The notes under the pieces were generated by a model. That model had not been told where the DNA came from. It made no database searches and saw only the letters and a program-made list of their open reading frames with translations. From positions 1 through 45,686 of IMG/VR virus record IMGVR_UViG_2663763339_000005: 45,686 nt of DNA. One strand, written 5' to 3'. Made by a program: the position numbers and the translations under genes. Source of the stretch: a virus (lineage: Duplodnaviria > Heunggongvirae > Uroviricota > Caudoviricetes). Of this stretch, positions 6,377-36,955 are shown in pieces (the first letter of the stretch is position 1; every line of letters begins with the position of its first letter).

Positions 6377-6916
6377 ATGCAACCACTTACATACCAACAG
6401 ACTAGCGGATTTAGCCCGACTGCGGTGATAAATCGTTCTCAAACAAAACAGGTGCCAGGCCACGAAAAAATCCGTGATGCCGTCCGCGCCTGGTCGGCTG
6501 AAGATAATCAGGATGTCGTTGCCGCACTCATTGTGAATGAGTATCGAGCACAGGGCGGCGGCACTATCGATTTTTCTGATGATGTCAGTCGTGCACGCCA
6601 GAAGCTGTTCCGCTTTCTCGATAACAAATTCGATTCTGAAAAATACCGAAATAACGTGCGTGAACTGACTCCAGCAATTCTGGCAGTACTACCGCTGAAA
6701 TATCGCGGCCACCTGGTTGAGCAGGATAGCTTCATGGCTCGGCTGGCTGAAATGGAAAAGGAACTCAGTGAGGCAAAACAGGCTGTCATTCTCAACGCAC
6801 CACGCCACCAGAAACTGAAGGAAATTAGTGAAGGTATTGTGTCGATGTTTCGTGTGGACCCAGATCTGGCTGGTCCATTGATGGCGATGGTTACTACCAT
6901 GCTGGGGGCGATATGA
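6377..6916 (+). CDS. YdaT-like regulatory protein in the cII position
   Basis: 179 aa following cro-like gene; resembles Rac-prophage YdaT family by position and composition (recalled, not searched). Confidence 0.4.
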   Translation: MQPLTYQQTSGFSPTAVINRSQTKQVPGHEKIRDAVRAWSAEDNQDVVAALIVNEYRAQGGGTIDFSDDVSRARQKLFRFLDNKFDSEKYRNNVRELTPAILAVLPLKYRGHLVEQDSFMARLAEMEKELSEAKQAVILNAPRHQKLKEISEGIVSMFRVDPDLAGPLMAMVTTMLGAI

Positions 6917-7002
6917 CAGGTTCAGAAATGGCGAAAGCCGGTCTGCTGGAACAGAACCGACTTTCAGGTGCAAATCGTAACACACTCATTGCGGGAGGAA
7001 TT

Positions 7003-7932
7003 ATGGCAAACACTGCTGAGATATTCAATTTTCCAGTGCCGGATGCGGCACAAAAGGAGCCGCGCGTGGCAGATCTCGATGATGGTTATACGCGCATTGC
7101 AAATGAGTTGCTGGAAGCTGTGATGCTGGCCGGATTAACACAGCACCAGCTTCTGGTCTTCCTAGCTGTCATGCGCAAAACATATGGCTTTAATAAAAAA
7201 CTGGATTGGGTGAGCAACGAGCAACTGTCCGAATTGACCGGGATATTGCCGCACAAGTGTTCTGCTGCAAAAAGTGTTCTGGTAAAGCGTGGGATTTTGA
7301 TTCAGAGCGGGCGGAATATCGGTATTAATAATGTGGTCAGTGAATGGTCAACATTACCCGAATCAGGTAAGAAAAATAAAGTTTACCTGAAAGAGGTAAA
7401 TTTACCTGAATCAGGTAAGAAAAGTTTACCCAAATCAGGTAAAGGCGTTTACCCGAATCAGGTAAACACAAAAGACAAACTAACAAAAGACAATATAAAA
7501 CCTTTTTCGTCCGAGAATTCTGGCGAATCCTCTGACCAACCAGAAAACGATCTTCCTGTGGTGAAACCAGATGCTGCAATTCAGAGCGGCAGCAAGTGGG
7601 GGACAGCAGAAGACCTGACCGCCGCAGAGTGGATGTTTGACATGGTGAAGACCATCGCGCCATCAGCCAGAAAACCGAATTTTGCAGGGTGGGCTAACGA
7701 TATCCGCCTGATGCGTGAACGTGACGGACGTAACCACCGCGACATGTGTGTGCTGTTCCGCTGGGCATGCCAGGACAACTTCTGGTCCGGTAACGTGCTA
7801 AGTCCGGCCAAACTCCGCGACAAGTGGACCCAACTCGAAATCAACCGTAACAAGCAACAGGCAGGCGTGACAGCTAGCAAACCAAAACTCGACCTGACAA
7901 ACACAGACTGGATTTACGGGGTGGATCTATGA
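7003..7932 (+). CDS. Replication initiator O-like protein (contains ori iterons)
   Basis: ORF 6913..7932; start at Met 7003 preceded by GGAGG; N-terminal replisome-organiser-like domain; four iterons inside the gene; followed by lambda P. Confidence 0.8.
   Translation: MANTAEIFNFPVPDAAQKEPRVADLDDGYTRIANELLEAVMLAGLTQHQLLVFLAVMRKTYGFNKKLDWVSNEQLSELTGILPHKCSAAKSVLVKRGILIQSGRNIGINNVVSEWSTLPESGKKNKVYLKEVNLPESGKKSLPKSGKGVYPNQVNTKDKLTKDNIKPFSSENSGESSDQPENDLPVVKPDAAIQSGSKWGTAEDLTAAEWMFDMVKTIAPSARKPNFAGWANDIRLMRERDGRNHRDMCVLFRWACQDNFWSGNVLSPAKLRDKWTQLEINRNKQQAGVTASKPKLDLTNTDWIYGVDL
7353..7467 (+). repeat. Replication origin iterons within O gene (4 x ~ACC(C/T)(G/A)AATCAGGTAA) followed by A/T-rich stretch
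   Basis: Direct repeats cccgaatcaggtaa / cctgaatcaggtaa / cccaaatcaggtaa / cccgaatcaggtaa read directly in sequence. Confidence 0.8.
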
Positions 7933-9400: not shown

Positions 9401-9587
9401 TGTTAATGTCTTTATTTTTTTTATGTATTCTTTTGTGCTTTCAAGATTATGGCGTAAGAAAATTGCAATACGATTATTGTTGTATATTCAAGATAATGTG
9501 ACCTTAATTGTCTTTTTAAATAAAAATTAAACAAAAATTATATCTCACCACTAAGGTTTATAAAAGCATACGTTAGCAGGTGTCACC

Positions 9588-11114
9588 ATGAAAAAAGCCA
9601 TAGCATATATGCGATTTTCATCACCAGGTCAGATGTCTGGCGACTCATTAAACCGACAGAGAAGACTTATTGCTGAATGGTTAAAGGTAAATAGTGATTA
9701 TTATCTTGATACCATAACATATGAAGATTTAGGATTAAGTGCATTCAAAGGAAAGCATGCACAATCAGGAGCTTTTTCGGAATTTTTAGATGCTATAGAG
9801 CATGGTTATATATTGCCAGGAACTACATTGTTAGTTGAAAGTCTGGACAGACTTTCAAGAGAAAAAGTCGGTGAAGCGATTGAGCGTCTGAAATTGATTT
9901 TGAATCACGGTATTGATGTTATAACTCTTTGCGATAATACAGTCTATAATATTGACTCTTTGAATGATCCATATTCATTAATAAAAGCCATACTTATAGC
10001 ACAAAGGGCAAATGAAGAAAGCGAGATAAAGTCAAGTCGGGTTAAATTATCATGGAAGAAAAAACGGCAGGATGCACTGGAGTCAGGCACGATTATGACG
10101 GCGTCTTGTCCGAGATGGCTCTCCTTAGATGACAAAAGAACGGCTTTTGTTCCAGACCCCGACAGGGTGAAAACTATTGAGCTAATTTTTAAACTCAGGA
10201 TGGAAAGGCGCTCATTGAATGCAATAGCCAAGTATTTAAATGATCATGCTGTAAAGAATTTCTCAGGAAAAGAAAGTGCATGGGGACCTTCTGTAATTGA
10301 AAAATTATTAGCGAATAAAGCTCTGATAGGTATATGCGTACCTTCATATCGTGCAAGAGGTAAAGGAATAAGTGAAATCGCTGGCTATTATCCCAGAGTC
10401 ATATCAGATGATTTGTTTTACGCTGTGCAGGAAATTCGGTTGGCACCTTTTGGTATTAGCAATAGTAGCAAAAACCCTATGTTGATAAATCTACTTCGAA
10501 CAGTTATGAAGTGCGAGGCTTGTGGTAATACCATGATTGTTCATGCGGTATCTGGAAGTTTGCATGGCTATTATGTTTGTCCGATGAGAAGACTGCATCG
10601 ATGTGACAGGCCATCAATAAAGAGAGATTTGGTTGATTATAATATCATTAATGAGTTGCTTTTTAATTGTAGTAAAATCCAACCAGTTGAAAACAAGAAA
10701 GATGCTAATGAAACTTTAGAGTTGAAAATTATTGAGCTCCAGATGAAAATTAATAATTTAATTGCTGCATTATCTGTTGCGCCTGAAGTTACCGCTATAG
10801 CAGAAAAAATCAGAGTATTAGATAAGGAATTACGAAGGGCTTCTGTATCATTAAAAACTTTGAAGAGTAAAGCGGTGAGCTCACTTGGTGATTTTCATGC
10901 TATTGACTTAACCAGTAAAAATGGGCGAGAGCTATGTCGTACACTTGCCTATAAAACATTCGAAAAAATCATAATCAATACAGATAATAAAACCTGTGAT
11001 ATCTATTTTATGAATGGCATTGTTTTTAAACACTATCCTTTAATGAAAACAATATCCGCCCAGCAGGCGATAAGTACTCTCAAATATATGGTTGATGGTG
11101 AGGTTTATTTTTGA
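9588..11114 (+). CDS. ybcK: Large serine recombinase (resolvase-domain N-terminus, zinc ribbon, coiled coil), YbcK-like
   Basis: 508 aa; N-terminal resolvase fold with catalytic Ser in AIAYMRFSSPGQ; cysteine cluster CEACGN...CPMRRLHRC; AT-rich codon usage indicating foreign origin. Confidence 0.85.
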   Translation: MKKAIAYMRFSSPGQMSGDSLNRQRRLIAEWLKVNSDYYLDTITYEDLGLSAFKGKHAQSGAFSEFLDAIEHGYILPGTTLLVESLDRLSREKVGEAIERLKLILNHGIDVITLCDNTVYNIDSLNDPYSLIKAILIAQRANEESEIKSSRVKLSWKKKRQDALESGTIMTASCPRWLSLDDKRTAFVPDPDRVKTIELIFKLRMERRSLNAIAKYLNDHAVKNFSGKESAWGPSVIEKLLANKALIGICVPSYRARGKGISEIAGYYPRVISDDLFYAVQEIRLAPFGISNSSKNPMLINLLRTVMKCEACGNTMIVHAVSGSLHGYYVCPMRRLHRCDRPSIKRDLVDYNIINELLFNCSKIQPVENKKDANETLELKIIELQMKINNLIAALSVAPEVTAIAEKIRVLDKELRRASVSLKTLKSKAVSSLGDFHAIDLTSKNGRELCRTLAYKTFEKIIINTDNKTCDIYFMNGIVFKHYPLMKTISAQQAISTLKYMVDGEVYF

Positions 11115-18477: not shown

Positions 18478-18672
18478 TCATCCATCATCACTTTGGATTG
18501 ATGTATATGCTCTCTTTTCTGACGTTAGTCTCCGACGGCAGGCTTCAATGACCCAGGCTGAGAAATTCCCAGACCCTTTTTGCTCAAGAGCGATGTTAAT
18601 TTGTTCAATCATTTGGTTAGGAAAGCGGATGTTGCGGGTTGTTGTTCTGCGGGTTCTGTTCTTCGTTGACAT
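18478..18672 (-). CDS. YlcI-like small protein (DUF3950-like)
   Basis: 64 aa MSTKNRTRRTTTRNIRFPNQMIEQINIALEQKGSGNFSAWVIEACRRRL...; recalled as DLP12 ylcI-like. Confidence 0.6.
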   Translation of the reverse strand: MSTKNRTRRTTTRNIRFPNQMIEQINIALEQKGSGNFSAWVIEACRRRLTSEKRAYTSIQSDDG

Positions 18673-24967: not shown

Positions 24968-24995
24968 AAAGGCCGCCTGTGCGGCTTTTTTTACG
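24968..24995 (+). terminator. Hairpin plus T-run between D and E (terminator-like attenuator)
   Basis: GGCCGCCTGTGCGGC followed by TTTTTTT. Confidence 0.5.
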
Positions 24996-25005
24996 GGATT
25001 TTTTT

Positions 25006-25281
25006 ATGTCGATTTACACAACCGCCCAGCTGCTGGCGGCAAATGAGCAGAAATTTAAGTTTGATCCGCTGTTTCTGCGTCTCTTTTTCCGTGAGAGCTA
25101 TCCCTTCACCACGGAGAAAGTCTATCTCTCACAAATTCCGGGACTGGTAAACATGGCGCTGTACGTTTCGCCGATTGTTTCCGGTGAGGTTATCCGTTCC
25201 CGTGGCGGATCCACCTCTGAATTTACACCGGGATATGTCAAGCCCAAGCACTTAGCATGGCTTTCTGAGGCTTTCGTGTAG
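25006..25281 (+). pseudogene. E: Major capsid protein E, 5' fragment (codons 1-81 intact, then 9 element-derived codons and stop), disrupted by insertion
   Basis: MSIYTTAQLLAANEQKFKFDPLFLRLFFRESYPFTTEKVYLSQIPGLVNMALYVSPIVSGEVIRSRGGSTSEFTPGYVKPKH matches lambda gpE N-terminus; divergence begins exactly after 25250. Confidence 0.92.
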
Positions 25282-25413
25282 TTGCTGGTTTTTACACTTA
25301 ATCTTTTGATAATAAAGAATAAGTTTATCTGGCGCTTTCACTGGATTTTCCTCGTTATCTGTGTGTTGCAATCATCTCTGTATTGCAGCTTGTATTGCTT
25401 TTTGGGGCTAAAA

Positions 25414-26649
25414 ATGGCTGGCGAGAACAAACTGAGCGACAAAGCACTTAAAGGATATCTGGGGAAACCCAGAGAAAAGCAGATCACCATTGCTGATGGA
25501 AAGGGGCTTTCTATTCGTGTGAGTACCAAGGGGGCTGTGAGCTTTGTTTTCTTCTACAGGTTAGCAGGTGGCCGGGCTGCTCCGGTCTGGCTAACGTTGG
25601 GTAAATATCCTGATATGTCACTCAAACAGGCAAGGGAAAAGCGCGACGAGTGCCGTGGTTGGTTGGCTGACAAACGTGATCCGCGTATCCAGATTAAGAT
25701 TCAGGCTGAAGAACGCTTAAAGCCGGTCACAGTGGAGGATGCACTAAATTACTGGTATGAAAATTACTGTAAGGTGCGTCGTAAAACTCATGCTGTAACG
25801 CTTGGCAGATTTCGAAAGCATATCTTTCCCTATATCGGTCATTTGCCCGTAAATGACACTCACCTATATGAATGGCTGGACTGTTTTGACCGAATTAAAC
25901 GTAATGCACCAGTTATGGCGGCGTATGTTTTTTCTGACACTAAATTAGCTCTTCGTTTTTGTCGGGTACGCCAGTACGCGACGTGTGATGCTTTAAAGGA
26001 TTTGCGCATGAGTGATGTGGGGCAGATTGCAGGTAAGCGGGATCGGGTTCTGGATGAAGCCGAACTGGGCCAGCTCTGGAAGGCAATTTTTGTCGAGCCT
26101 GATTTAAAACTAATGTCTGAATACACGCGAAAAATGTTTGTGCTTTGTACAGTATTTGGATGTCGAATGAGTGAAGCCCGATTATCTGAATGGAGCGAAT
26201 GGGATCTCGAAAGTTGGGTTTGGACTGTACCAAAAGATCACTCAAAAACTGGTGTTGAAATCGTCAGACCAGTACCTGAAATTCTACGACAGTGGGTAAC
26301 GGATGTTCACGAAGAGACAAAACATACTGGTTATGTGCTGGGAAGTCTGCGAATTAGAGAAAGCGTAAGCAAGATTGGGGGGAAAATCGGTAAACGTTTG
26401 GGCCATGAAAAACAATGGTCACTACACGACCTTAGAAGAACGCTATCTACTCATCTAAGTGATCTCGGTGTTGAATTTTATGTAGTAGAACAACTGTTAG
26501 GCCATGCGCTACCTGGCGTGGCAGGTGTTTACAACCGGAGTAAGTTTATGGCTAAAAAACTGGATGCTCTGGAACTCTGGACTACATATCTCAATAGCAT
26601 CGCAGGTGCTGATTCAAAAGTGACAATCCTCAAACAAAAGGCTGGTTAA
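25414..26649 (+). CDS. Tyrosine integrase, P4-like family (element integrase)
   Basis: ORF 25282..26649; start at Met 25414 (MAGENKLSDKALKGY...); C-terminal HDLRRT...GH...Y catalytic motifs; adjacent to left attachment junction. Confidence 0.88.
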   Translation: MAGENKLSDKALKGYLGKPREKQITIADGKGLSIRVSTKGAVSFVFFYRLAGGRAAPVWLTLGKYPDMSLKQAREKRDECRGWLADKRDPRIQIKIQAEERLKPVTVEDALNYWYENYCKVRRKTHAVTLGRFRKHIFPYIGHLPVNDTHLYEWLDCFDRIKRNAPVMAAYVFSDTKLALRFCRVRQYATCDALKDLRMSDVGQIAGKRDRVLDEAELGQLWKAIFVEPDLKLMSEYTRKMFVLCTVFGCRMSEARLSEWSEWDLESWVWTVPKDHSKTGVEIVRPVPEILRQWVTDVHEETKHTGYVLGSLRIRESVSKIGGKIGKRLGHEKQWSLHDLRRTLSTHLSDLGVEFYVVEQLLGHALPGVAGVYNRSKFMAKKLDALELWTTYLNSIAGADSKVTILKQKAG

Positions 26650-26650
26650 C

Positions 26651-26878
26651 ATGAAAAAAATGGCAATTGTTGATAAAAAGGGTCTGGAGTACATTCCTAA
26701 CATCGATCGTATGATCCGTGAGAAAGAATGTCGGGAGCTAACCACTCTTGCAAACAGCACACGCTGGAAGCTGGAGAAGGAAGGAAAATTTCCTAAGCGG
26801 ATCAAGATTGGTTCCACTGCTGTTGCATATCGTCTTTCAGAAGTGCAGGCATGGATTCGAGGTGAGTGGGTAGTTTAA
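26651..26878 (+). CDS. AlpA-like transcriptional regulator/excisionase
   Basis: 75 aa; ...RELTTLANSTRWKLEKEGKFPKRIKIGSTAVAYRLSEVQAWI is a typical AlpA HTH; directly downstream of integrase. Confidence 0.8.
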   Translation: MKKMAIVDKKGLEYIPNIDRMIREKECRELTTLANSTRWKLEKEGKFPKRIKIGSTAVAYRLSEVQAWIRGEWVV

Positions 26879-26904
26879 ATTATCTCAGAATAAAATATTA
26901 TGAA

Positions 26905-26938
26905 TTACTGATTTGAGAATTTGTACTCAAATCAGTAA
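26905..26938. terminator. Bidirectional hairpin between alpA and convergent membrane-protein gene
   Basis: TTACTGATTTGAG...CTCAAATCAGTAA 13-bp inverted repeat in AT-rich context. Confidence 0.5.
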
Positions 26939-26947
26939 TAACATTCT

Positions 26948-27484
26948 TTATAAGAGATTAAATCCAAATAAAGAGTAATCATATACCGGGGTGCATTGCA
27001 TCCCACTGAATATGCTGATGTTTTTTTCTGTTTCTATCCTTTTTTCAATAAGTTGTTGTATATTTTTACAGTACAATTTGTGTGTGATGTTATTATCGTA
27101 AGCCTGATATAGCAACGTCAATGTTGACGCTAGGAAACATACAGATAAAATTAAAATAATATATGCAGTTTTTTTATTTTTTGTCCATGATCTATTTGTT
27201 TGTGAAATATAAAGAATTCTGAGGTGGATAATGGTGAGAGACAATAGCAGGCCACTCAATAAAATAAGTATTGGGTTTGCGTATTTTATTAATGGTTGAG
27301 AGCAAAAAACTATTATAGCTCCTGTGACTGCGTATGAGAAAAAGGAGTGATTAAACTTCTTACTCCTTCTCTCAAGTATTTTAATTTCATCTTGTGTGGG
27401 GGTTTTAGATGCCTCTAATATAAGTTTATTGAATGTTTCTGTTATCTTGTTTTTTGTGTTTGTGGCTATTTTTTTTAGATTCAT
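26948..27484 (-). CDS. Hypothetical membrane protein (element cargo)
   Basis: 178 aa, very AT-rich, hydrophobic segments (AVTGAIIVFCSQPLI..., ILILLSGLLLSLTIIHL..., AYIILILSVCFLASTLTLL); opposite strand to core element genes. Confidence 0.5.
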   Translation of the reverse strand: MNLKKIATNTKNKITETFNKLILEASKTPTQDEIKILERRSKKFNHSFFSYAVTGAIIVFCSQPLIKYANPILILLSGLLLSLTIIHLRILYISQTNRSWTKNKKTAYIILILSVCFLASTLTLLYQAYDNNITHKLYCKNIQQLIEKRIETEKNISIFSGMQCTPVYDYSLFGFNLL

Positions 27485-27834
27485 AGCATTCTAACTCCCT
27501 TAACTTATTTATTACTTTCTCTTTATGATAAGAGAGGGGAATGACTTGGTAAAGTGATTTGTCATTAATAATGATAATCCTTGCGATAAATATTTCTGCA
27601 AGTTATTTATCTGTTTGTTGCTATCTTGTTAAGCGTTGGGTGTGGTTTATGTTTGGAGCGACTTTATTTAATCGTGATTTTATGGATTTATATTTATATC
27701 CTGTAAGATAAGCGCATGTTAGTTCAGGAGTAGTGTCAGATAAAATTATTCGGAGTAGAACTACCTTTTCTGTTTATTGCCAGTATTTACATAGCAATGC
27801 GCCGTAGTTACTCACATCACGGCGCTGATACTAA

Positions 27835-28137
27835 TTATTCAGATTCTTTGGCTTTACGCCGCTGGAGTTCTTCACGAGCGACGGCTACGAGTTGCCCGAT
27901 TTCCTCCGCTGCCTTGATGCCGATTTGTTCGACCTTAGCTAAGGCATCCAGTGAAGACACGAGGGGATTTTCTCCGCTTCCTTCTGCCTGGCGGCGGGCG
28001 ATCTCACCGCGCATGGCGGTTACTATGAATCCGGCGTTGCTTTCGCCGTCCAGTTTTACGGATTCCATGCCCTCCATAACATCGTGGGGAACCCTGATCG
28101 TTGTCATTTGCGATTTTGCATTTTTGTATACAGACAT
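27835..28137 (-). CDS. Putative ribbon-helix-helix transcriptional repressor of the element
   Basis: 100 aa; N-terminal TTIRVPHDVMEGMESVKL...GFIVTAMRGEIARRQ fits beta-strand/helix/helix RHH pattern; divergent from operon containing primase across an operator-rich region. Confidence 0.5.
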   Translation of the reverse strand: MSVYKNAKSQMTTIRVPHDVMEGMESVKLDGESNAGFIVTAMRGEIARRQAEGSGENPLVSSLDALAKVEQIGIKAAEEIGQLVAVAREELQRRKAKESE

Positions 28138-28139
28138 AG

Positions 28140-28345
28140 TTAATCACCAATTTGTTATGTGTATATCACTATACACAAAAGTGAGATATAAAAACACTTG
28201 CAATGTATATCACCACAATATAATGTATATCTCACATTATGGTAGCTATGTATCTCACAATGATCGATTCATAAAAACGACGAAACCCGGCAGTGCGCGA
28301 ACACTAACCGGGCTTCTAACCAAACCGTTAAACGAGGTAACGACT
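28140..28345. promoter_or_regulatory. Operator-rich divergent promoter region of the element
   Basis: Repeated TGTATATC(A/T)CAC-like motifs in both orientations (tgtgtatatcactatacaca, gtgagatata, tgtatatcacc, tgtatatctcac, tgtatctcac). Confidence 0.55.
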
Positions 28346-28711
28346 ATGGCTGGAACACAGCATACCCAAACTCACCCTAAATTTATATACATCTTTCTGG
28401 CGCTACATCGCGATCGCATAGCAGATGGAGCAACTACGGTACATGTAGCCGCTGACACGCTGGTTGATGCCCGCAAGATGGTTAAGGAGATGGGCTATAC
28501 TGCGGCTTTCTGGAAAGGGCGGGAAGAAAACACGCTGTTTATTCAGAAATGTGAAAACAATTTCATCTGGCGTTTTATCGCCCTGAGTACGGCACAACCG
28601 CGCGTGATTACCATCGAGGCCACCAGCGAACAGGAAGCCCGCCAGCAATCCCCAACTGGCTGCGTGATGATATTCGCCGCCCGTATTCGTCAGGAGGTGT
28701 GCCATGAATGA
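28346..28711 (+). CDS. Hypothetical protein, first gene of element rightward operon
   Basis: ORF 27797..28711 trimmed to Met 28346 preceded by GAGG; 121 aa; internally repeated small domain; function unknown. Confidence 0.45.
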   Translation: MAGTQHTQTHPKFIYIFLALHRDRIADGATTVHVAADTLVDARKMVKEMGYTAAFWKGREENTLFIQKCENNFIWRFIALSTAQPRVITIEATSEQEARQQSPTGCVMIFAARIRQEVCHE

Positions 28712-28928
28712 TCTTTATTTTAAAGTGCTGACACATGCTGAAAACGCGCTCGTTTGTGGCAAAAATATGCGAGAAATCTTATCAACTTGGCTTGATGGGA
28801 CAACAAATGCGGAACACGATGAACGGGATGCTAATTTAGCTGGAGCGTTAATTACGTTACTTGATCCTGTCATCAAAGAGCTGGATGAAGCTATAAAAAT
28901 ACACGACCAGAGCTATACCGGAGAATAA
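28704..28928 (+). CDS. Hypothetical protein
   Basis: 74-aa ORF translationally coupled to upstream gene. Confidence 0.4.
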   Translation: MNDLYFKVLTHAENALVCGKNMREILSTWLDGTTNAEHDERDANLAGALITLLDPVIKELDEAIKIHDQSYTGE

Positions 28929-28930
28929 AA

Positions 28931-29218
28931 ATGAAAAATAAATTTTCTGGCTTTATTGCCAGCGGTCAAACTCATTCAAAAATCAGCCTTGGGGATATTT
29001 TCAAAGATAGCTATGGCTATCGAGTAAAGATTATTTCGGTTGATGATCGCCGTGTCTCTTATTTGCGTGATGGTTATGATTTTGAATGTGTTATGCCGCG
29101 TCAGCAGTTCGAAAGAGATTTCATTCTGGTAAAAAATTGCAAGACAGATAATCAGAGGCGTGCCGCAGGCTATATCCGCAAAATTCGGGCAATGTTAGTT
29201 GCCGGAGGTAACAAATGA
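28931..29218 (+). CDS. Hypothetical protein
   Basis: 95-aa ORF immediately upstream of and overlapping primase start. Confidence 0.4.
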   Translation: MKNKFSGFIASGQTHSKISLGDIFKDSYGYRVKIISVDDRRVSYLRDGYDFECVMPRQQFERDFILVKNCKTDNQRRAAGYIRKIRAMLVAGGNK

Positions 29219-31035
29219 AACGTGCTCCGAACTTAAAATACCAACCGCGCGACAAAATGACAGAAGTCATCATTTTTGCTGGCAGTGATGCCTGGAGCCA
29301 TGCAAAAGAATGGAATGAATGGGCGGGTAAGCATATTGCAGCAGATGATACACCACCAGTAATTCTGGGTACGGAACAACTGGAAAACCTGGATGATATG
29401 CAAATTATCGATGAAGGCCGTCATTATGTGCGTGTTTATCGTGCCGGAAAGATCGCAGAGAAAAATCTGACGAAGGTTGCGACATTACTTGCTATTGCAG
29501 GCGTAAAGGAAGCACGTTGTTACCGTAGCTTTGTTGATCGAGAGCCTGAAGACTGGACTCCGCGCCTTGTCGGCCTAAAAGCTGAAGCGGAGCATGGGGA
29601 AAGTCTGGTGATTGAACTGCCAGTGAAGAAGGCAGAGCGCAAAAATGACGAGCGTGCTTCATCTTTGGCGTTGAATCAGATGGGGGCCAGCCAGCGCGGT
29701 GAAGTTCTCCTGGCACATTACGGCGGCGAACTGGCAATCAATGCCGACTCTGACACCGTTCATCATTACAACGGCGTTGTATGGGAGCCGGTTCAGGATA
29801 AAGAGTTACAGCGTGCTATGGCGCAGATTTTCATTGATGCGGAGATCAGCTATTCGCAGAACGCCATTAAATCGGCGGTAGATACCATGAAGTTAAGTTT
29901 GCCTGTAATGGGGAATACAGCCCGTAACCTGATTGGATTCAGTAACGGGGTATTTGATACCAGAACAGGTAATTTTCGGGATCATAACAAAAACGACTGG
30001 TTGTTAATTGCCAGTGAATTACCTTTCAGCCCACCAGCAGAGGGGGAAACGCTGGCAACACATGCGCCGAATTTCTGGAAGTGGTTGCGCCGTTCGGTGG
30101 CTGAGAATGACCGCAAGGCAGATCGCGTACTGGCGGCATTATTCATGGTGCTGGCGAACCGGTACGACTGGCAGTTATTCATTGAGGTAACAGGGCCGGG
30201 GGGAAGTGGTAAAAGCGTGATGGCGGAGATTTGCACCATGCTGGCGGGTAAGGCTAATACAGTATCAGCAAGCATGAAGGCGCTGGAAGATGCAAGGGAA
30301 CGTGCGTTAGTGGTTGGCTTTTCGCTGATTATCATGCCGGATATGACCCGCTACGCTGGTGATGGGGCAGGGATTAAGGCCATTACAGGCGGTGACAAGG
30401 TGGCAATTGACCCGAAACACAAAGCCCCCTATTCAACGCGTATTCCGGCAGTAGTGCTGGCGGTTAACAATAACGCCATGTCATTCAGTGACCGCAGCGG
30501 GGGGATCTCACGTCGTCGGGTGATATTCAATTTTTCGGAAGTTGTACCGGAGAACGAACGCGATTCGATGCTGGCGGAAAAAATAGAAGGTGAGCTGGCG
30601 GTAGTGATTCGTCATCTGCTTACACGGTTTGCTGATCAGGACGAAGCCAGACGCCTGTTATATGAGCAGCAGAAATCTGAAGAAGCACTGGCGATAAAGC
30701 GAGAGGGGGATTCGCTGGTGGACTTCTGCGGCTATCTCATGGCATCGGTAATGTGTGATGGCCTGTTAGTGGGTAATGCTGAAATTGTGCCATTCAGCCC
30801 ACGCAGGTATCTCTATCATGCCTATCTGGCTTATATGAGGGCACATGGGTTTGGTAAACCTGTAACACTGACGCGCTTCGGTAAAGATATGCCGGGGGCA
30901 ATGGCGGAATATGGCAGGGAGTATATGAAACGGAAAACGAAGCACGGTTTGCGTTCAAACGTGACACTGACGGAGGAATCAGAAGACTGGATGCCATCAT
31001 GTGTATCGGTCACTAATGACGATAGCAAAAATTAA
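29215..31035 (+). CDS. Primase/helicase, phage-plasmid P4-family (D5_N + SF3 helicase-like C-terminal domain)
   Basis: 606 aa; Walker A GPGGSGKS; region NGVFDTRTGNFRDHNKNDW...; followed by iteron array. Confidence 0.85.
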   Translation: MKRAPNLKYQPRDKMTEVIIFAGSDAWSHAKEWNEWAGKHIAADDTPPVILGTEQLENLDDMQIIDEGRHYVRVYRAGKIAEKNLTKVATLLAIAGVKEARCYRSFVDREPEDWTPRLVGLKAEAEHGESLVIELPVKKAERKNDERASSLALNQMGASQRGEVLLAHYGGELAINADSDTVHHYNGVVWEPVQDKELQRAMAQIFIDAEISYSQNAIKSAVDTMKLSLPVMGNTARNLIGFSNGVFDTRTGNFRDHNKNDWLLIASELPFSPPAEGETLATHAPNFWKWLRRSVAENDRKADRVLAALFMVLANRYDWQLFIEVTGPGGSGKSVMAEICTMLAGKANTVSASMKALEDARERALVVGFSLIIMPDMTRYAGDGAGIKAITGGDKVAIDPKHKAPYSTRIPAVVLAVNNNAMSFSDRSGGISRRRVIFNFSEVVPENERDSMLAEKIEGELAVVIRHLLTRFADQDEARRLLYEQQKSEEALAIKREGDSLVDFCGYLMASVMCDGLLVGNAEIVPFSPRRYLYHAYLAYMRAHGFGKPVTLTRFGKDMPGAMAEYGREYMKRKTKHGLRSNVTLTEESEDWMPSCVSVTNDDSKN

Positions 31036-31048
31036 ACTTATGGAATAA

Positions 31049-31280
31049 CTGTTCACCACTGTTCACCCTGTCATAAATATCTTTTATATCAGTATATTAT
31101 AGGGTGAACAGTTATTTATGAACTGTTCACCAAACTATTCACTGTTCACCTTTTTGATTGTTTATTGAGCTTCAAGGGTGAACAGTGGTGAACAGTTGGT
31201 GAATAGTTTTTGTGAAACTGTTCACCCATTAACATTATGAATTAAAAGAGAAAATATCAAAAGGTGAACAGGTGAAGGGT
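31049..31280. repeat. Element replication origin: ~10 copies of TGTTCACC/GGTGAACA iterons in both orientations
   Basis: ctgttcaccactgttcaccc, gggtgaacagtt, gaactgttcacc, cactgttcacc, gggtgaacagtggtgaacagttggtgaatag, actgttcaccc, aggtgaacaggtgaaggg read directly. Confidence 0.8.
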
Positions 31281-31322
31281 TAAAACGCAAAAATTTTAAT
31301 TTACTGCTGTGAGATAAAGCCT

Positions 31323-31568
31323 ATGACAGCGAAGCACACAAAAAAATCACAATCGCACGCCCTTGATTTGACGGAACACTGGTTAAGGGTGTCGATAAAA
31401 ATCATCGACCGCAACGCCGGGGAAGGATACGCGAAAGCACATCCCGAACTGATTAGCGCATTCATGACAACGGCGGCTGCAAACTTTGCCACTCTGACCG
31501 AACGGGAGATTGCTGAAGCGGAGGAAGTGACAACAATCAATATTAAGTCCGGAGAGCAGGCAGCATGA
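31323..31568 (+). CDS. Hypothetical protein
   Basis: 81-aa ORF downstream of ori, coupled to SSB gene. Confidence 0.4.
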   Translation: MTAKHTKKSQSHALDLTEHWLRVSIKIIDRNAGEGYAKAHPELISAFMTTAAANFATLTEREIAEAEEVTTINIKSGEQAA

Positions 31569-32014
31569 CGGCGCAAATATCAGTTTACGGGCGGTTGGTG
31601 GACGACCCGCAGACAAAACAGACCAGCAAGGGCACCCCCATGACGCTGGCGCGTATGGCGGTATCACTGCCCTGCAGTCAGTCGGATGACGGTCAGGCGA
31701 CGATGTGGTTATCTGTCCTGGCGTTTGGCAGACAAGCCGACGCGCTGGCAAAGCATCACAAAGGCGAACTCCTGAGCGTGGCGGGTAACATGCAGATGAG
31801 CCAGTGGACTGGACAGAACGGCGAAACGCGGCAGGGCTGGCAGGTTATCGCAGACAGCGTAATCAGTGCGCGATCGGTGCGACCGGGCGGCAATAAAGGC
31901 CAACAGGGGCAGGCTACTGACGCACTGAACAGAGCAAAACAACAGGCAGATCAGCAAGGAAGCCAGCCACCAGTGGGAGATAATGAGCAATGGGGAGATG
32001 ATATCCCGTTTTAA
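31565..32014 (+). CDS. Single-stranded DNA-binding protein (SSB)
   Basis: 149 aa; OB-fold N-terminus, Gly/Gln-rich linker and acidic C-terminal tail ...GDDIPF characteristic of SSB. Confidence 0.85.
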   Translation: MTAQISVYGRLVDDPQTKQTSKGTPMTLARMAVSLPCSQSDDGQATMWLSVLAFGRQADALAKHHKGELLSVAGNMQMSQWTGQNGETRQGWQVIADSVISARSVRPGGNKGQQGQATDALNRAKQQADQQGSQPPVGDNEQWGDDIPF

Positions 32015-32231
32015 ATATTGCCAATAAAAAAAGGCCGGAAAAAATAAATTTTCCGGCATGCTACATAAATCCCGACCAAAGGGAGTGAAGATATTAACAC
32101 TAATTTTCCGCACTGAAGTTGTCACCCCAAAACTTTATACAACATTGCACTCGGTTGCATGTATTCGCATGACAAATATCGGTGATAGCATATATCCACA
32201 ATTATTTTTAATGAATGCAAAGAGGATGCGT

Positions 32232-33272
32232 ATGGTTGATTTATATTCGCCTACTCAGCTTGTACAGGTGGTTAATGCTGTAGATGTACAAAAACAACTA
32301 AATGCGTTGTTTACCAGTTTGTTTTTTACTCGCTCGGTAATGTTTGAATCGCGCGATATTATTCTTGATACAATCGACGATCCAAATATCCCAATTGCAG
32401 CGTTTTGTTCTCCTATGGTGGGTAGTAAAGTTTCACGTGACGAAGGGTACGAATCAAAAACAATTCGTCCAGGCTATATGAAGCCGAAAAGCAGCATTGA
32501 TCCAAATAAGTTAGCTGTGCGCCCTGCTGGTGTATCACCTGAGCAATACAATGCTTTTGGGGCGCGTAATATTAAAGTTAAACAGGCGATTGTAAATCAA
32601 GCTAAAGCTATTCGTGCACGTATTGAATGGCTTGCTGTTCAGGCAATCACAACGGGGAAAAATATCATTGAGGGCGATGGTATTGAACGTTATGAGCTGG
32701 ACTGGAATATTAAACCACAAAATATCATCACTCAGTCTGGCGGTGCTGAGTGGTCAGGTAAGGATAAAGAAACTTTTGATCCAAATGATGATATTGAGAG
32801 CTACGCAGAATTTAGTGAGGGCGTCACTAATATTATCATTATGGGCGGTAATGTATGGAAGAAATACCGTTCATTCAGAGCGATAAAAGAGGCTCTGGAT
32901 ACCCGTCGTGGTTCTAATTCCGAACTGGAAACGGCCCTTAAAGACCTTGGTGATTCGGTGAGTTTTAAAGGGTATATGGGCGATGTTGCGATTGTTGTTT
33001 ACAGCGGGCGTTATACCGACGAGGACGGAACAGAAAAACATTTCCTTGATCCTGATTTGATGGTGCTTGGCAATACGGCTCTTCAGGGGATTGTCGCCTA
33101 TGGCGGTATTCAGGATCCGGAGCTAATCCGAATGGGGCTGACTAAAGCCGAACTTGCACCGAAAAACTATATTGTGCCTGGTGATCCGGCTATTGAATAT
33201 GTGCAGACACATTCAGCACCACAGCCAATACCGGCCCGCATCAATCGTTTTGTTACCGTTCGCATTGGCTAA
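32232..33272 (+). CDS. Major capsid protein, lambda gpE family (element-encoded divergent paralogue)
   Basis: ORF 32058..33272; start Met 32232 preceded by AGAGGA; clear alignment to lambda E (ITQSGGAEWSGKDKETFDPNDDIESYAEF...NIIIMGGNVWKKYRSFRAIKEALDTRRGSNSELETALKDLG..YKG..GDVAIVVYSG); ~346 aa versus 341 for lambda E. Confidence 0.88.
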   Translation: MVDLYSPTQLVQVVNAVDVQKQLNALFTSLFFTRSVMFESRDIILDTIDDPNIPIAAFCSPMVGSKVSRDEGYESKTIRPGYMKPKSSIDPNKLAVRPAGVSPEQYNAFGARNIKVKQAIVNQAKAIRARIEWLAVQAITTGKNIIEGDGIERYELDWNIKPQNIITQSGGAEWSGKDKETFDPNDDIESYAEFSEGVTNIIIMGGNVWKKYRSFRAIKEALDTRRGSNSELETALKDLGDSVSFKGYMGDVAIVVYSGRYTDEDGTEKHFLDPDLMVLGNTALQGIVAYGGIQDPELIRMGLTKAELAPKNYIVPGDPAIEYVQTHSAPQPIPARINRFVTVRIG

Positions 33273-33281
33273 GGGGGAGCA

Positions 33282-33623
33282 ATGGCTACTCATTACACTG
33301 AACTCATGGCTGGCACTGAAGCACTGGTGACTACGCTGGGGATATTTTCAGCTAATAAAGGGGTAATTCCTGCATTTACGCCACTGATGCAGGAAGATGC
33401 AACAGGTGCACTGGTAGTATGGGATGGTTCGAGCGTAGGTAAAGCGGTTTATGTTTCCGCTGTACAAATCGACACCGCGAAAAAAACACAGGCTCAGGTC
33501 TATAAGACAGGTGTCTTAAATGTTGATGCTCTGAACTGGCCTGAGTCTGTTAAAGAACTGTCAGTAAAGGTTGCAGCGTTTGTTGGCTCAGGTATTTCTG
33601 TTCAGCCGCTGGCTCGTGTGTAA
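33282..33623 (+). CDS. Head decoration protein, lambda gpD family (element-encoded divergent paralogue)
   Basis: 113 aa; PLMQEDATGALVVWDGSSVGKAVYVSAV...YKTGVLNVDALNWPE...FVGSGISV aligns with gp[28 protein letters not shown]...[15 protein letters not shown]...FAGTAISI. Confidence 0.8.
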   Translation: MATHYTELMAGTEALVTTLGIFSANKGVIPAFTPLMQEDATGALVVWDGSSVGKAVYVSAVQIDTAKKTQAQVYKTGVLNVDALNWPESVKELSVKVAAFVGSGISVQPLARV

Positions 33624-33634
33624 AGGGGGATACA

Positions 33635-34018
33635 ATGCAGAATGATTACAATGACCTTAAGCCAATTGCCGAAATGATGTACCCGAATCAAGCTGTAGAG
33701 GAATTAAAAGCTATCGCTGACAAAATGTGTTTAAGCGAGCGCCTTGTTGATATGAATCAGGTGATGGAAATTACAACCCTGAGTCGTCGTACACTGCTAA
33801 ACCTTGAGGCTAGTGGAGAGTTCCCGGAGCGTGTGCAGGTTACGGAAGGGCGTAAGGCCTGGTATTTAAGTGAAGTGATCGACTGGATAAATAATATTCC
33901 TCGCGCTTCTGAATATTGCCGCGTACCTGTCCCAAAAAAGCCAGATGCGGCGCTATGCCTCAAGATTGAGCGTGTACGCCGCAATGCACGGGATGGTCGC
34001 TATAAGCTGATTGGTTGA
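33635..34018 (+). CDS. Small HTH protein adjacent to element cos (candidate packaging-redirection / Nu1-like DNA-binding factor)
   Basis: 127 aa; MNQVMEITTLSRRTLLNLEASGEFPERVQVTEGRKAWYLSEVIDWI is a MerR/AlpA-like winged HTH; ends just upstream of cos-like site. Confidence 0.45.
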   Translation: MQNDYNDLKPIAEMMYPNQAVEELKAIADKMCLSERLVDMNQVMEITTLSRRTLLNLEASGEFPERVQVTEGRKAWYLSEVIDWINNIPRASEYCRVPVPKKPDAALCLKIERVRRNARDGRYKLIG

Positions 34019-34029
34019 TGAAATTAGGG

Positions 34030-34250
34030 CCCGCTCTGGCTGGCGGGTCCTTTCCGGCGATCCAGGACGTTACGGGGCGTCAGGCGCGCAGATTCTTGCT
34101 ATTTATGACAATTTTCTGCGATTTGCCGTTTCTGTTCTTCTTCGTTGTAACTATATGTTATTAATGGAAATGCCACCTAAAAAGAAAGGAAATGGTAAGC
34201 GCTATTTTGAGCTAAAAACAGCTTAACCGTTTCCTTTCTCCAAAATTTAC
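34030..34250 (+). other. Element cos-like site (lambda-like cosQ, variant cosN GGGCGTCAGGCG at 34075-34086, cosB-like R/IHF elements)
   Basis: ggcgggtcctttccggcgatccaggacgttacgGGGCGTCAGGCGcgcagattcttgctatttatgacaattttctgcgatttgccgtttctgttcttcttcg...aaaaagaaaggaaatgg aligns block-by-block with the helper cos at 18840-19040. Confidence 0.8.
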
Positions 34251-34260
34251 TGAGGCGGCT

Positions 34261-34686
34261 ATGAATCCATGCGCAGAAGTCATGACAACTATCAAACTAA
34301 GCGGATCTTTAGCTTCTTTGTTCGCCAGAGAACATCAGCGCCTTATCGGTCCGACGCGTGAGGCATTAAGGGTATTATCAGCCACTATTCCGGGATTTGA
34401 GAAATTCATGAACACTAGCAAGGCTTGAGGACTCACTTTCGCCGTGTTTGTGGATAAAAATAATGTCGCGCAGGATGATCTCGATTTTCCAAATGGTGGT
34501 CGTACGATTCGAATTGTTCCGATCATTATGGGGAGTAAGCGTGCTGGTGTTCTGCAAACCATTCTTGGCGCTTTCTTGGTGGTTGGTGGTGTTCTGGGGG
34601 CAACGATAGGGCAAGCATGGAACGGTGGTGTGTGGAGCGGCAAGTATTTTCTATTGGCAGAAGCCCATTCCGCCAAGATAGGCTAG
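34261..34686 (+). pseudogene. Tail assembly protein I-like ORF interrupted by a single in-frame TGA (34426-34428)
   Basis: N-part MNPCAEVMTTIKLSGSLASLFAREHQRLIGPTREALRVLSATIPGFEKF and C-part ...RTIRIVPIIMGSKRAGVLQTILGAFLVVGG resemble helper gpI (LYGDLQRFGRRIDLRVKTGAEAIRALATQLPAFRQKL / AVIHIVPRVAGAKSGGVFQIVLGAAAIAG); same frame across the stop. Confidence 0.45.
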
Positions 34687-34781
34687 ACGTATAAGATCGG
34701 TTACAATCTATAAATCAGCTGTTGAATTATTGAATTTTAACCATATTTATCAGATGGACTTCATTCAAAAAGGTAACTTTG

Positions 34782-35468
34782 ATGGCCGGACAATTAGACG
34801 AAGCAGCAAAACAGATTTTGGGTACCTTACTGGCAGATTTTACAGATCGAGGGTTAACTGCACAGGATTTAAAAAATGGTTATGAAGGCCCGAACATCAA
34901 TGCGCTAGCTACTGCAGTATGCAACGTCGCTGATTTTACATCTGTAGATTTTGAAGTTGCCTTTGGCGATCTCGAAAAAAGCAAACTAATCAAAACTGGC
35001 CCCATGAAAATGTTCGATAATGATCACAATAGCTCTGTGATCATTATTGCTTCTTATAGCCTACGTGAATATGTTTATTTGACGGAGGCTGGATACAAGG
35101 AGTCCAGGAAAGTACCAAATCGCCCACAACGTGTTCAGCGTATAGTCAATAATCTAACGATCACCGGCGGACATTTCAGCAATACGCAATTAGGGCAGGG
35201 AGAGGTCGTTTCCCAAACCCAAAACATCACAAGCAGTTCCGATTCTGAAATAGTTGCTAAGCTGATTTCTATCATTGAAGAACAGGGGCAAGTAGTTAAC
35301 AGCGATCAACGTTCTGATATTGAAGCAGCTGTGGCAGCCGCTAATGAAGGTGATGGTAAAGAAGCGAAATCATTGCTGTCTAAAGTATGCGGTCCTGTTT
35401 GGGAGTCTGTGCAACCAGTAATATGGCCGATCATTGGTGAGTTGGTTAAGAAAGGGCTCGGGATTTAA
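34782..35468 (+). CDS. Hypothetical protein (element cargo, unknown function)
   Basis: ORF 34779..35468; ATG 34782 preceded by AGGT; 228 aa, acidic, no recognised family. Confidence 0.45.
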   Translation: MAGQLDEAAKQILGTLLADFTDRGLTAQDLKNGYEGPNINALATAVCNVADFTSVDFEVAFGDLEKSKLIKTGPMKMFDNDHNSSVIIIASYSLREYVYLTEAGYKESRKVPNRPQRVQRIVNNLTITGGHFSNTQLGQGEVVSQTQNITSSSDSEIVAKLISIIEEQGQVVNSDQRSDIEAAVAAANEGDGKEAKSLLSKVCGPVWESVQPVIWPIIGELVKKGLGI

Positions 35469-35660
35469 TTTAATAAATTCTAAAAGGGCTGTTTGGGTAG
35501 TATTTTTATGGGGCTCTTCAATTAAAAGGAGTCATAGGGTCAAACGATGTGCCTATGACTCCTGGATAAAGCCATCAGAGAATATTAGTGTTAACAATTT
35601 CTCTTCAGCCCTTGTTTATACGATGCCAGCTTCAGAACCGAATCAACGCTCATGCGATCT

Positions 35661-35954
35661 TTAGCATCTCGGTAATGACAGTAAGTTATTATTCCATCGA
35701 CCATCAGCATAAGTACGTATAAATTTCCGCCCTCCCCCTCCTGGATCAACGACACCTACATCAGCACGTTTGCCATAACTATCAGTGACATAGAAAGTAT
35801 GTAACTTGTTCTCAATTGAATTAACTACATCTGCCACAGTCCACTTACTTCCAGGGGGATTAAATTGAGGGCTTCCCACATGAGTAATGTGTTCATGAAG
35901 GGCGTTCGAACTGGAGAGAGTAATACAAGTTAATCGTACATCAACCATCTTCAA
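35661..35954 (-). CDS. Hypothetical small protein, possibly DUF3892-like (element cargo near right junction)
   Basis: 97 aa with ITHVG and NNLLSLPRC motifs recalled as DUF3892-like; opposite strand, AT-rich. Confidence 0.4.
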   Translation of the reverse strand: MKMVDVRLTCITLSSSNALHEHITHVGSPQFNPPGSKWTVADVVNSIENKLHTFYVTDSYGKRADVGVVDPGGGGRKFIRTYADGRWNNNLLSLPRC

Positions 35955-36174
35955 CTCCTTATTTACTGTGAAAAATCATAAGATACAGCATGTATCGAAA
36001 TACAGCAGGGTGAACAATTTCGATTTACGAGGACTTAGCAAAGTCTCTTTCTCTTAAACTGTGGGCTTGTATTGCAGGTTGTATTGCAACTGTAGCTAAG
36101 CAATATCAGTTGTAAGCTTTATTTCTTTTACAGTCAATCGTATAGCATCGTATTTGACTCATGTAGCCCAAGCA

Positions 36175-36955
36175 TGAGGTGAATCCGCAGATGACCCTGC
36201 GTCGCCTGCCGGATGAAGATCCACAGAATCTGGCGGACCCGGCTTACCGCCGCCGTCGCATCATCCTGCAGAACATGCGAGACGAAGAGCTGGCCATTGC
36301 TCAGGTCGAAGAGATGCAGGCAGTTTCTGCCGTGCTTAAGGGCAAATACACCATGACCGGTGAAGCCTTCGATCCGGTTGAAGTGGATATGGGCCGCAGT
36401 GTGGCGAACAACATCACGCAGTCCGGCGGTACGGAGTGGAGCAAGCGTGACAAGTCCACGTATGACCCGACCGACGATATCGAAGCCTACGCGCTGAACG
36501 CCAGCGGTGTGGTGAATATCATCGTGTTTGATCCGAAAGGCTGGGCGCTGTTCCGTTCCTTCAAAGCCGTCAGGGAGAAGCTGGATACCCGTCGCGGCTC
36601 TAATTCCGAGCTGGAGACAGCGGTAAAAGACCTGGGCGAAGCGGTGTCCTATAAGGGGATGTATGGCGATACGGCGATCGTCGTGTATTCCGGACAGTAC
36701 GTGGAAAACGACGTCAAAAAGAACTTCCTTCCGGACAACACGATGGTGCTGGGGAACACTCAGGCACGCGGTCTGCGCACCTATGGCTGCATTCAGGATG
36801 CGGACGCACAGCGCGAAGGTATTAACGCCTCTGCCCGCTACCCGAAAAACTGGGTGACCACCGGCGATCCGGCGCGTGAGTTCACCATGATTCAGTCAGC
36901 ACCGCTGATGCTGCTGGCTGACCCTGATGCGTTCGTGTCCGTACAACTGGCGTAA
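36175..36955 (+). pseudogene. E: Major capsid protein E, 3' fragment (codon 82 to stop), separated from 5' fragment by the inserted element
   Basis: ...HEVNPQMTLRRLPDEDPQNLADPAYRRRRIILQNMRDEELAIAQVEEMQ... matches lambda gpE; in-frame TAG immediately upstream of the junction; 245 nt (5' part) + 781 nt = 1026 nt, the exact length of lambda E. Confidence 0.92.

Follow-up and report, generated by a model that had tools for sequence, protein, structure and literature searches.

Gram-negative PICIs are common, and what keeps them quiescent is unexplained. The only regulator tested in these islands is AlpA, an activator. The founding PICI paper found no regulator besides AlpA and called the global repressor 'unclear' (PMC6092414). 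Does the intergenic region at 28138-28345 of the DNA analysed here (45,686 nt, referred to as the window) belong to such a repressor and carry its operators? An original prediction had read it, from the letters of the sequence, as a repressor/operator switch between a small leftward gene and a rightward operon of a satellite. We consider it likely that this region is a two-layer immunity and replication-control switch of a helper-embedded PICI satellite, in which a protein, five sites and an antisense RNA together probably keep the satellite's replication genes off.

Gene calls and family profiles identify the window as an E. coli lambdoid prophage whose major capsid gene is interrupted by an island of about 11 kb. 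The N-terminal (24979-25281) and C-terminal (36179-36955) fragments of this lambda-E-type helper gene flank the satellite (25282-36178), which has the same orientation as the capsid gene it interrupts. The island carries int (25408-26649), alpA (26651-26878), a leftward membrane-protein gene, the leftward gene of the 100-aa candidate repressor (27835-28137, minus strand), the intergenic region of 208 bp and a rightward operon. The first gene of this operon (28346-28711, plus strand) encodes an Icd-like protein, a putative host cell-division inhibitor (NCBIfam NF033153, E 2.8e-23, and PHROG matches). It is followed on the plus strand by a 74-aa gene (28704-28928), a DUF4222 gene (28931-29218) and the gene of a D5-type primase (D5_N/Pox_D5 primase-helicase; 29215-31035), and within 28704-31035 starts and stops overlap or abut. 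Both the leftward 100-aa gene and a rightward operon leading to the primase had been predicted and are found here. Downstream, the island carries an SSB gene, its own major capsid (32058-33272) and decoration (33282-33623) genes and, beyond these capsid genes, a second, longer AlpA-like gene of 127 aa (33635-34018, plus strand; phrog_2790, excisionase and transcriptional regulator). Control of replication and packaging genes had been proposed; the replication genes do lie in the facing operon, and the packaging and capsid genes are located 4 kb downstream.

With int, alpA, a primase and capsid genes of its own, inserted in and co-oriented with a helper late gene, the island is of the published helper-embedded PICI (HE-PICI) type, and its description as a satellite is thereby supported. 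This configuration has been published for Eco567.11capE, an element of the same type and size that has the same gene order and likewise interrupts the major capsid gene of its helper; the Eco567.11capE paper differs in describing zones and C4/isrK-type immunity RNAs, and in it the RHH gene, operators and antisense RNA are all unmentioned (PMC10111431). In the helper-embedded arrangement, helper late transcription reads into int-alpA (PMC10111431). Two further features lie to the left of the intergenic region. An AT-rich gene of 178 aa (26948-27484, minus strand), downstream of the candidate repressor gene and on the same strand, encodes the predicted membrane protein, for which NCBIfam and PHROG gave no match and Pfam none above threshold (weak matches only, E 0.002 or worse); the gene is possibly cargo or a defence gene. 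A GC hairpin with a 7-bp stem (GCGCCGT...ACGGCGC, 27800-27826) lies 8 nt past the stop of the candidate repressor gene, with no T-run on either strand.

The 100-aa protein belongs to the NCBIfam family YlcI/YnfO (NF041551; 70.5 bits against a cut-off of 30, residues 8-49) and has 249 homologue clusters in Enterobacterales. A ribbon-helix-helix (RHH)-like N-terminus had been predicted for it; a fold match and a G-x-S turn agree with this, whereas the threshold of a curated RHH family is not reached. In an AF2 model of residues 1-56 (pLDDT 83) the fold matches RHH proteins almost exclusively, and the strand-helix-helix domain of about 45 residues matches solved RHH proteins. The full-length AF2 model, uninformative in fold searches, shows an extended N-terminus, helices at 18-27 and 34-51 and a long helix at 58-99, giving a layout of an N-terminal RHH domain (residues ~8-53) and a long C-terminal helix (58-99). 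The turn between the helices lies in D-G-E-S-N at residues 30-34, and the strand M11-T12-T13-I14-R15-V16-P17 alternates polar and hydrophobic residues, with R15 and P17 invariant. None of the Pfam RHH families reaches its threshold; the PSK_trans_fac model scores 16.3 bits against a cut-off of 28.3 and matches 18 of 25 homologues with a best E of only 0.0011. A PDB profile search with the 100-aa protein gave no RHH match, and hhalign assigned probabilities of 6% to Arc and 1% to Mnt. Despite this low probability, the hhalign register places TTIRVPHDV with QFNLRWPREV of Arc and FNFRMPMEV of Mnt. The RHH assignment appears reasonable because of the fold model, the G-E-S turn and the invariant R15 and P17, and it rests on fold, not sequence. 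By alignment with Arc and Mnt, the base-contacting residues would be 11, 13 and 15 (M-T-R here). The C-terminal half (residues 51-100, encoded at 27838-27987) is also conserved, with L59, S62, L63, L66, I72 and G73 invariant. Residues 45-86 weakly resemble the helix-hairpin-helix of archaeal Hef (1x2i, E 0.0055); AF2 draws this stretch as one continuous helix. A literature search returned no functional study for YlcI/YnfO proteins, for RHH proteins in PICIs, or for Icd-like genes with an antisense RNA.

Repeats of a common type had been noted throughout the region. Their pattern, TGTATATCWCAC, was searched over the window with up to two mismatches and gave 14 matches against 4.9 expected; seven overlapping matches form five sites, all within 28158-28260. 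When these sites are aligned at their 3' ends a tighter consensus, TRTATMTCAC, has five exact copies in 28160-28258 (99 bp) and one exact match outside the cluster in 45.7 kb, against 0.18 expected, an enrichment test that is partly circular as the consensus was fitted post hoc. That lone other copy, at 9539-9548 (plus strand), lies 40 nt upstream of the helper's 508-aa ORF (9588-11114) and is statistically not significant. By a de novo 8-mer statistic, 30 of 1000 local dinucleotide shuffles reach five sites, a modest result because the region is TA-rich. Taken from sequence alone the repeats are suggestive; the decisive support is comparative.

The five sites, candidate operators O1 to O5, are spaced by about 22-23 bp. 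O1 (TGTATATCAC, 28160-28169, plus strand) sits inside an imperfect palindrome (28155-28180), where it shares bases with the putative -10 and transcription start of the leftward gene, a position that is conserved in other classes of repeat. O2 (28181-28190) reads TATATCTCAC on the minus strand. O3 (TGTATATCAC, 28204-28213, plus strand) lies in the spacer directly after the -35 of the rightward promoter P_R, O4 (TATATCTCAC, 28226-28235, plus strand) overlaps the end of the -10 and the expected transcription start, and O5 (TGTATCTCAC, 28249-28258, plus strand) is found at about +20 of the rightward transcript. Both orientations are present, as had been claimed, in the form of four direct sites and one inverted site (O2). 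The intergenic region does measure 208 bp, close to the ~200 bp given before; however, the repeats are confined to its proximal ~100 bp, and the distal ~85 bp form a different conserved element. LexA boxes were considered as well. The repeats resemble LexA half-sites, but they are without the CTG-N10-CAG geometry found beside K-12 symR.

P_R is sigma-70-like (28198-28226, plus strand), with a -35 of TTGCAA (28198-28203), a 17-nt spacer and a -10 of TAATGT (28221-28226), which is overlapped by a TATAAT at 28219-28224. Across all classes, 34 of 37 unique regions have this geometry (-35, 17-18 nt, -10) at an unchanged offset. For the leftward gene a -10 of TATAGT (28168-28173, minus strand) may be read from the sequence with low confidence; TGTGTATAnT is conserved there in all classes, and the leftward promoter has a poor -35. 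A scan for promoters and terminators reported neither P_R nor the terminator of the antisense RNA described below, and both were placed by conservation across lineages.

The comparison set comprised about 100 related loci from at least nine genera. Loci in GTDB genomes came from Xenorhabdus, Photorhabdus, Enterobacter, Erwinia, Serratia, Phytobacter and a contig filed under Martelella; further loci were contigs of three divergent homologue clusters (Escherichia or Klebsiella), 80 IMG/VR contigs and EcCICFT073. Among complete E. coli genomes, 861 of 5426 contain matches to a 1.8-kb region holding the module. All loci share one layout: the start codon of the RHH gene, O1, a class-independent TATACACAAAA element, O2, a TTGACx -35, O3, a TAnnnT -10, O4, often O5, a two-hairpin leader and the start of the first rightward gene. 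The sites lie at about 5, 28, 50, 73 and 97 nt from the RHH gene start in every lineage, two helical turns apart.

What differs between lineages is the sequence of the repeat, and it changes in step with three strand residues of the protein. Among the residues facing DNA in the Arc alignment (11, 13 and 15), R15 is invariant, and eight classes, each with a repeat of its own, can be told apart by residues 11 and 13. Class MTR, to which the window belongs, has TRTATMTCAC; the repeat is GTGTGTTTC in class LTR, GTGTAAGAC in STR, GTGTGTATTTA in L/VNR, GGTGTGTA in MNR, GGTATTCAC in QNR, TGTGATTCA in QSR and GTGGGCCACAC in AKR, the class of EcCICFT073. Across the classes the 5' GTGT-like half of the repeat is shared and the 3' half is variable. 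The shared half fits the invariant arginine R15, and the covariation points to a simple recognition code that would match residues 11 and 13 to the variable half of the repeat. As the N-terminal coding region and the sites are 25-120 bp apart, plain linkage could account for their co-inheritance. With sites on the -35, -10 and start of P_R and eight classes of repeat that covary with the beta-strand residues, the repressor/operator reading that had been proposed is well supported computationally.

EcCICFT073, the model PICI, carries the same divergent module in the same gene order (NC_004431, 1380473-1380652), and its GTGGGCCACAC repeats flank the promoter. Its RHH protein has only 59 aa, the C-terminal helix being deleted in frame. 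EcCICFT073 works with this 59-aa version, and the C-terminal helix is therefore not essential for a working island.

The region as a whole had been described as operator-rich, a description that missed a predicted cis-antisense RNA gene on the first rightward gene, which takes up nearly half of it. This RNA of about 78 nt (28274-28351, minus strand) is SymR-like and has two hairpins, as judged from covariation, folding and a sub-threshold Rfam match. Its predicted start, at about 28351, is 3 nt beyond the Icd-like ATG, and its predicted end is near 28274. Its 5' hairpin would present an anti-Shine-Dalgarno CCUC in the apical loop, its 3' hairpin is GC-rich and followed by a U-rich tail, and its complementarity to the Icd-like gene covers the RBS and start codon. 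When 34 distinct leaders are aligned, 98% of the cells in the consensus structure pair, compared with 90% in shuffles and 35-47% when partners are slid, and the 36 compensatory cells observed were reached in none of 500 shuffles. The strand of the structured RNA is unambiguous: 104 cells are G.U on the minus strand (A.C on the plus strand) with no converse case, and the minus strand is the more stable one in 34 of 34 leaders, with a mean of -34.3 against -21.8 kcal/mol. For the window itself the minus strand folds with -30.8 kcal/mol (z -4.2) and the plus strand with -19.1 kcal/mol (z -1.9). A structured leader on the sense strand, either C4/CI-like or a riboregulated 5' UTR, was rejected, since all 104 wobble cells and all 34 stabilities favour the minus strand.

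The putative promoter of this RNA has a -10 of TATGCT at 28359-28364 (minus strand), inside codons 5-7 of the Icd-like gene. TAnnnT, 7 nt and then an A at the base of the hairpin are found in 41 of 41 unique leaders, and the TAnnnT box persists even at loci where the N-terminal peptide encoded there is of another gene family. The antisense unit escaped the promoter and terminator scan because its -35 is weak and its terminator tail interrupted.

At gathering score Rfam gave no match in the whole window, C4 and isrK included, and these two gave none in 27500-28800 at E up to 10. A permissive Rfam scan found SymR (RF01809) on the minus strand at 28279-28351 with 33.6 bits (E 3e-4), below the gathering score of 61. 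Conversely, a covariance model built from the leader alignment finds the annotated K-12 symR with 23.2 bits (E 7e-4); two other matches of this model in the window score similarly, at about 22 bits, and look spurious. One of them (6923-7012, minus strand, 21.6 bits), at the 5' end of the helper ORF 6913-7932, is a GC hairpin between an A-tract and a U-tract and probably arose by chance. Apart from these reciprocal matches, the predicted RNA resembles SymR of the K-12 SymR/SymE system in its length (about 77-78 nt), its two hairpins, its cover of RBS and start codon, its start 3 nt inside the target ORF (AGYCAU) and a -10 box 7 nt upstream of the start, which in K-12 reads TAGAAT, 7 nt, AGTCAT. 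It differs in its sub-threshold score and in its target, which is Icd-like (NF033153) and not of the SymE family; moreover, the upstream operator is for LexA in K-12 and would be for the RHH protein in the satellite. On this comparison the RNA is best called SymR-like, and it is not filed as a SymR member.

From the position and conservation of these parts we infer a switch of two layers. In the first layer, RHH dimers would insert their two-stranded beta-sheet into the major groove and bind the five TRTATMTCAC sites, with higher-order assembly probably provided by the long C-terminal helix. O3, O4 and O5 cover the spacer, -10, start and early transcribed region of P_R, and protein bound there would occlude the promoter and keep the operon of Icd-like, 74-aa, DUF4222 and primase genes off. 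O1 and O2 would cover the protein's own promoter, so that the protein limits its own synthesis by autoregulation. In the second layer, the antisense RNA, expressed from the promoter inside the first Icd-like codons, would pair with the RBS and start codon of the Icd-like gene, first by a loop-loop contact of CCUC with GAGG, and thereby block leaky synthesis of the putative division inhibitor from escaping mRNA. Release of the switch, for which the original prediction presumed a helper phage protein as inducer, may involve AlpA, a helper factor, or helper late transcription entering via int-alpA.

Four other explanations were weighed against the two-layer switch. The one that survives best, though we judge it unlikely, accepts that the protein binds the repeats but makes it only an autoregulator, or else an activator of P_R or a partner of the Icd-like protein in the manner of an antitoxin, and leaves on/off control to AlpA and the antisense RNA. 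AlpA is the tested activator, and overexpressing it alone is enough to induce EcCICFT073 (PMC6092414), so that master control may lie elsewhere than with the RHH protein. The same functional island has only the 59-aa version without the C-terminal helix, the weak Pfam matches point to an antitoxin-type RHH family, and the first gene of the operon is toxin-like with antisense control resembling that of type I toxin-antitoxin systems. Against a role in activation, every class places O3 and O4 where occlusion classically occurs, in the spacer of P_R and over its -10 and start. Against the antitoxin variant, the RHH gene is divergent from the Icd-like gene, whereas type II antitoxins are co-transcribed.

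It is quite improbable that the repeats are sites for AlpA, acting as activator, antiterminator or excisionase, and not for the RHH protein. AlpA does activate downstream PICI genes (PMC6092414), and AlpA-type proteins recognise sites within promoters (PMC9371919). However, AlpA sequences do not track the repeat classes. MTR and LTR operators can have the same AlpA (100% identity), a second AlpA goes with STR, LTR and MNR operators alike, and at some loci an HTH_17 protein takes the place of AlpA. Less probable still are iterons of a satellite replication origin, recognised by the primase or an initiator. The repeats are short, phased, AT-rich and upstream of a replication operon, as iterons would be, but their classes do not track the primase either: MTR operators occur with primases whose N-terminal regions are less than 80% identical in seven loci, and across the classes the replication modules are of D5_N, DUF927 or AAA_25 types. 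In addition, the sites overlap conserved promoter hexamers, and PICI origins are reported beside pri-rep genes (PMC6092414). Scarcely credible is a chance product of a TA-rich promoter region next to a small ORF with no regulatory role, for although five 8-mer sites turn up in 3% of local dinucleotide shuffles, at least nine genera keep the sites in the same number, spacing and position while their sequence changes by class, and the protein is conserved in 249 clusters.

Shuffling of components extends beyond AlpA and the primase. The same repeat class reappears in different genera with different leaders and different downstream genes, and LTR or MNR N-termini and operators accompany C-terminal halves of the protein at least 95% identical to that of the window. 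What is exchanged as a unit is therefore the N-terminal domain together with its operators, as in a phage immunity region.

Among known systems, P22 immI and CopG/RNAII of pMV158 appear to be the closest, and by this analogy the kind of system is already known. The P22 immI repressor Mnt is a small RHH protein that oligomerises through a C-terminal helix, and its gene diverges from the operon that it represses; operator and promoter overlap, and the short cis-antisense sar RNA covers the RBS of an operon gene, ant. The satellite shares with it the RHH protein with C-terminal helix, the divergent operon, sites overlapping the promoter and a predicted cis-antisense RNA over the RBS. It differs in that sequence membership is not detectable (hhalign 1-6%), that it has five phased sites compared with the one operator of P22, that the RNA targets an Icd-like gene and not ant, that its operon leads to a primase and that the element hosting it is a satellite. 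In pMV158, CopG, an RHH protein co-transcribed with repB, and the antisense RNAII jointly limit expression of the replication initiator. RHH protein and antisense RNA acting on replication genes would be common to both systems; in contrast to pMV158, the RHH gene of the satellite is divergent, an Icd-like gene is present and the protein families differ. Arrays of short repeats, direct or inverted, are bound by the omega repressor of pSM19035, and the five sites of the satellite resemble this arrangement.

An Icd-type gene also heads the operon of P1 immI (c4, icd, ant), where a small RNA pairs with its RBS and holds translation down. This C4 RNA is encoded upstream on the same strand and acts in trans on its own transcript. 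The satellite resembles P1 immI in its Icd-type first gene with a small RNA that would pair at the RBS, but its RNA lies on the opposite strand and the C4 and isrK models do not match the locus. The role proposed here is that of the Stl/Rpr master repressors of Gram-positive PICIs (SaPIs), which are helix-turn-helix proteins released by helper proteins. As with Stl/Rpr, the gene of the candidate repressor and the excision/replication operon of its phage satellite are transcribed divergently: in order, int, alpA, a transmembrane-protein gene and the leftward RHH gene are followed by the Icd-like to primase genes reading rightward. The fold is RHH and not helix-turn-helix, and a further difference is the reported reliance of Gram-negative PICIs on the activator AlpA (PMC6092414). 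New are the YlcI/YnfO family in such a role, the setting in a Gram-negative PICI and the class structure.

A wider reading is put forward here tentatively, and with more doubt than confidence. The YlcI/YnfO RHH protein may be the missing master repressor of enterobacterial PICIs, be they classical, capsid-forming or helper-embedded, the model EcCICFT073 included, existing as exchangeable cassettes of N-terminal beta-strand residues and five phased operators and backed by a SymR-like antisense lock on the Icd-like inhibitor. For islands as frequent as these, the region supplies a candidate repressor with mapped putative operators, and the predicted antisense RNA would be a second lock. Candidate repressor, putative operators and predicted RNA are all present in EcCICFT073, and the question is therefore directly testable. 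The class structure predicts which satellites would be mutually 'immune', and the YlcI/YnfO y-genes of E. coli K-12 prophages gain a first hypothesis on their function.

The tentative master-repressor reading would also bear on two neighbouring systems. K-12 symR aligns with the satellite RNA (AGYCAUA..., UUAG, GUGUUSGCGCAC) and has a LexA box where the satellite has RHH operators; the 5' control modules of chromosomal symE-symR and of the satellite may thus share ancestry. The helper prophage encodes a YlcI/YnfO paralogue of its own, a 64-aa protein (18478-18672, minus strand; NF041551, 37.6 bits, E 1.6e-9) whose gene has the cosB R sites (CGTTTCCNTTCT) and the small terminase gene just to its right. 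This paralogue of the lambdoid helper could cross-talk with the candidate repressor of the satellite.
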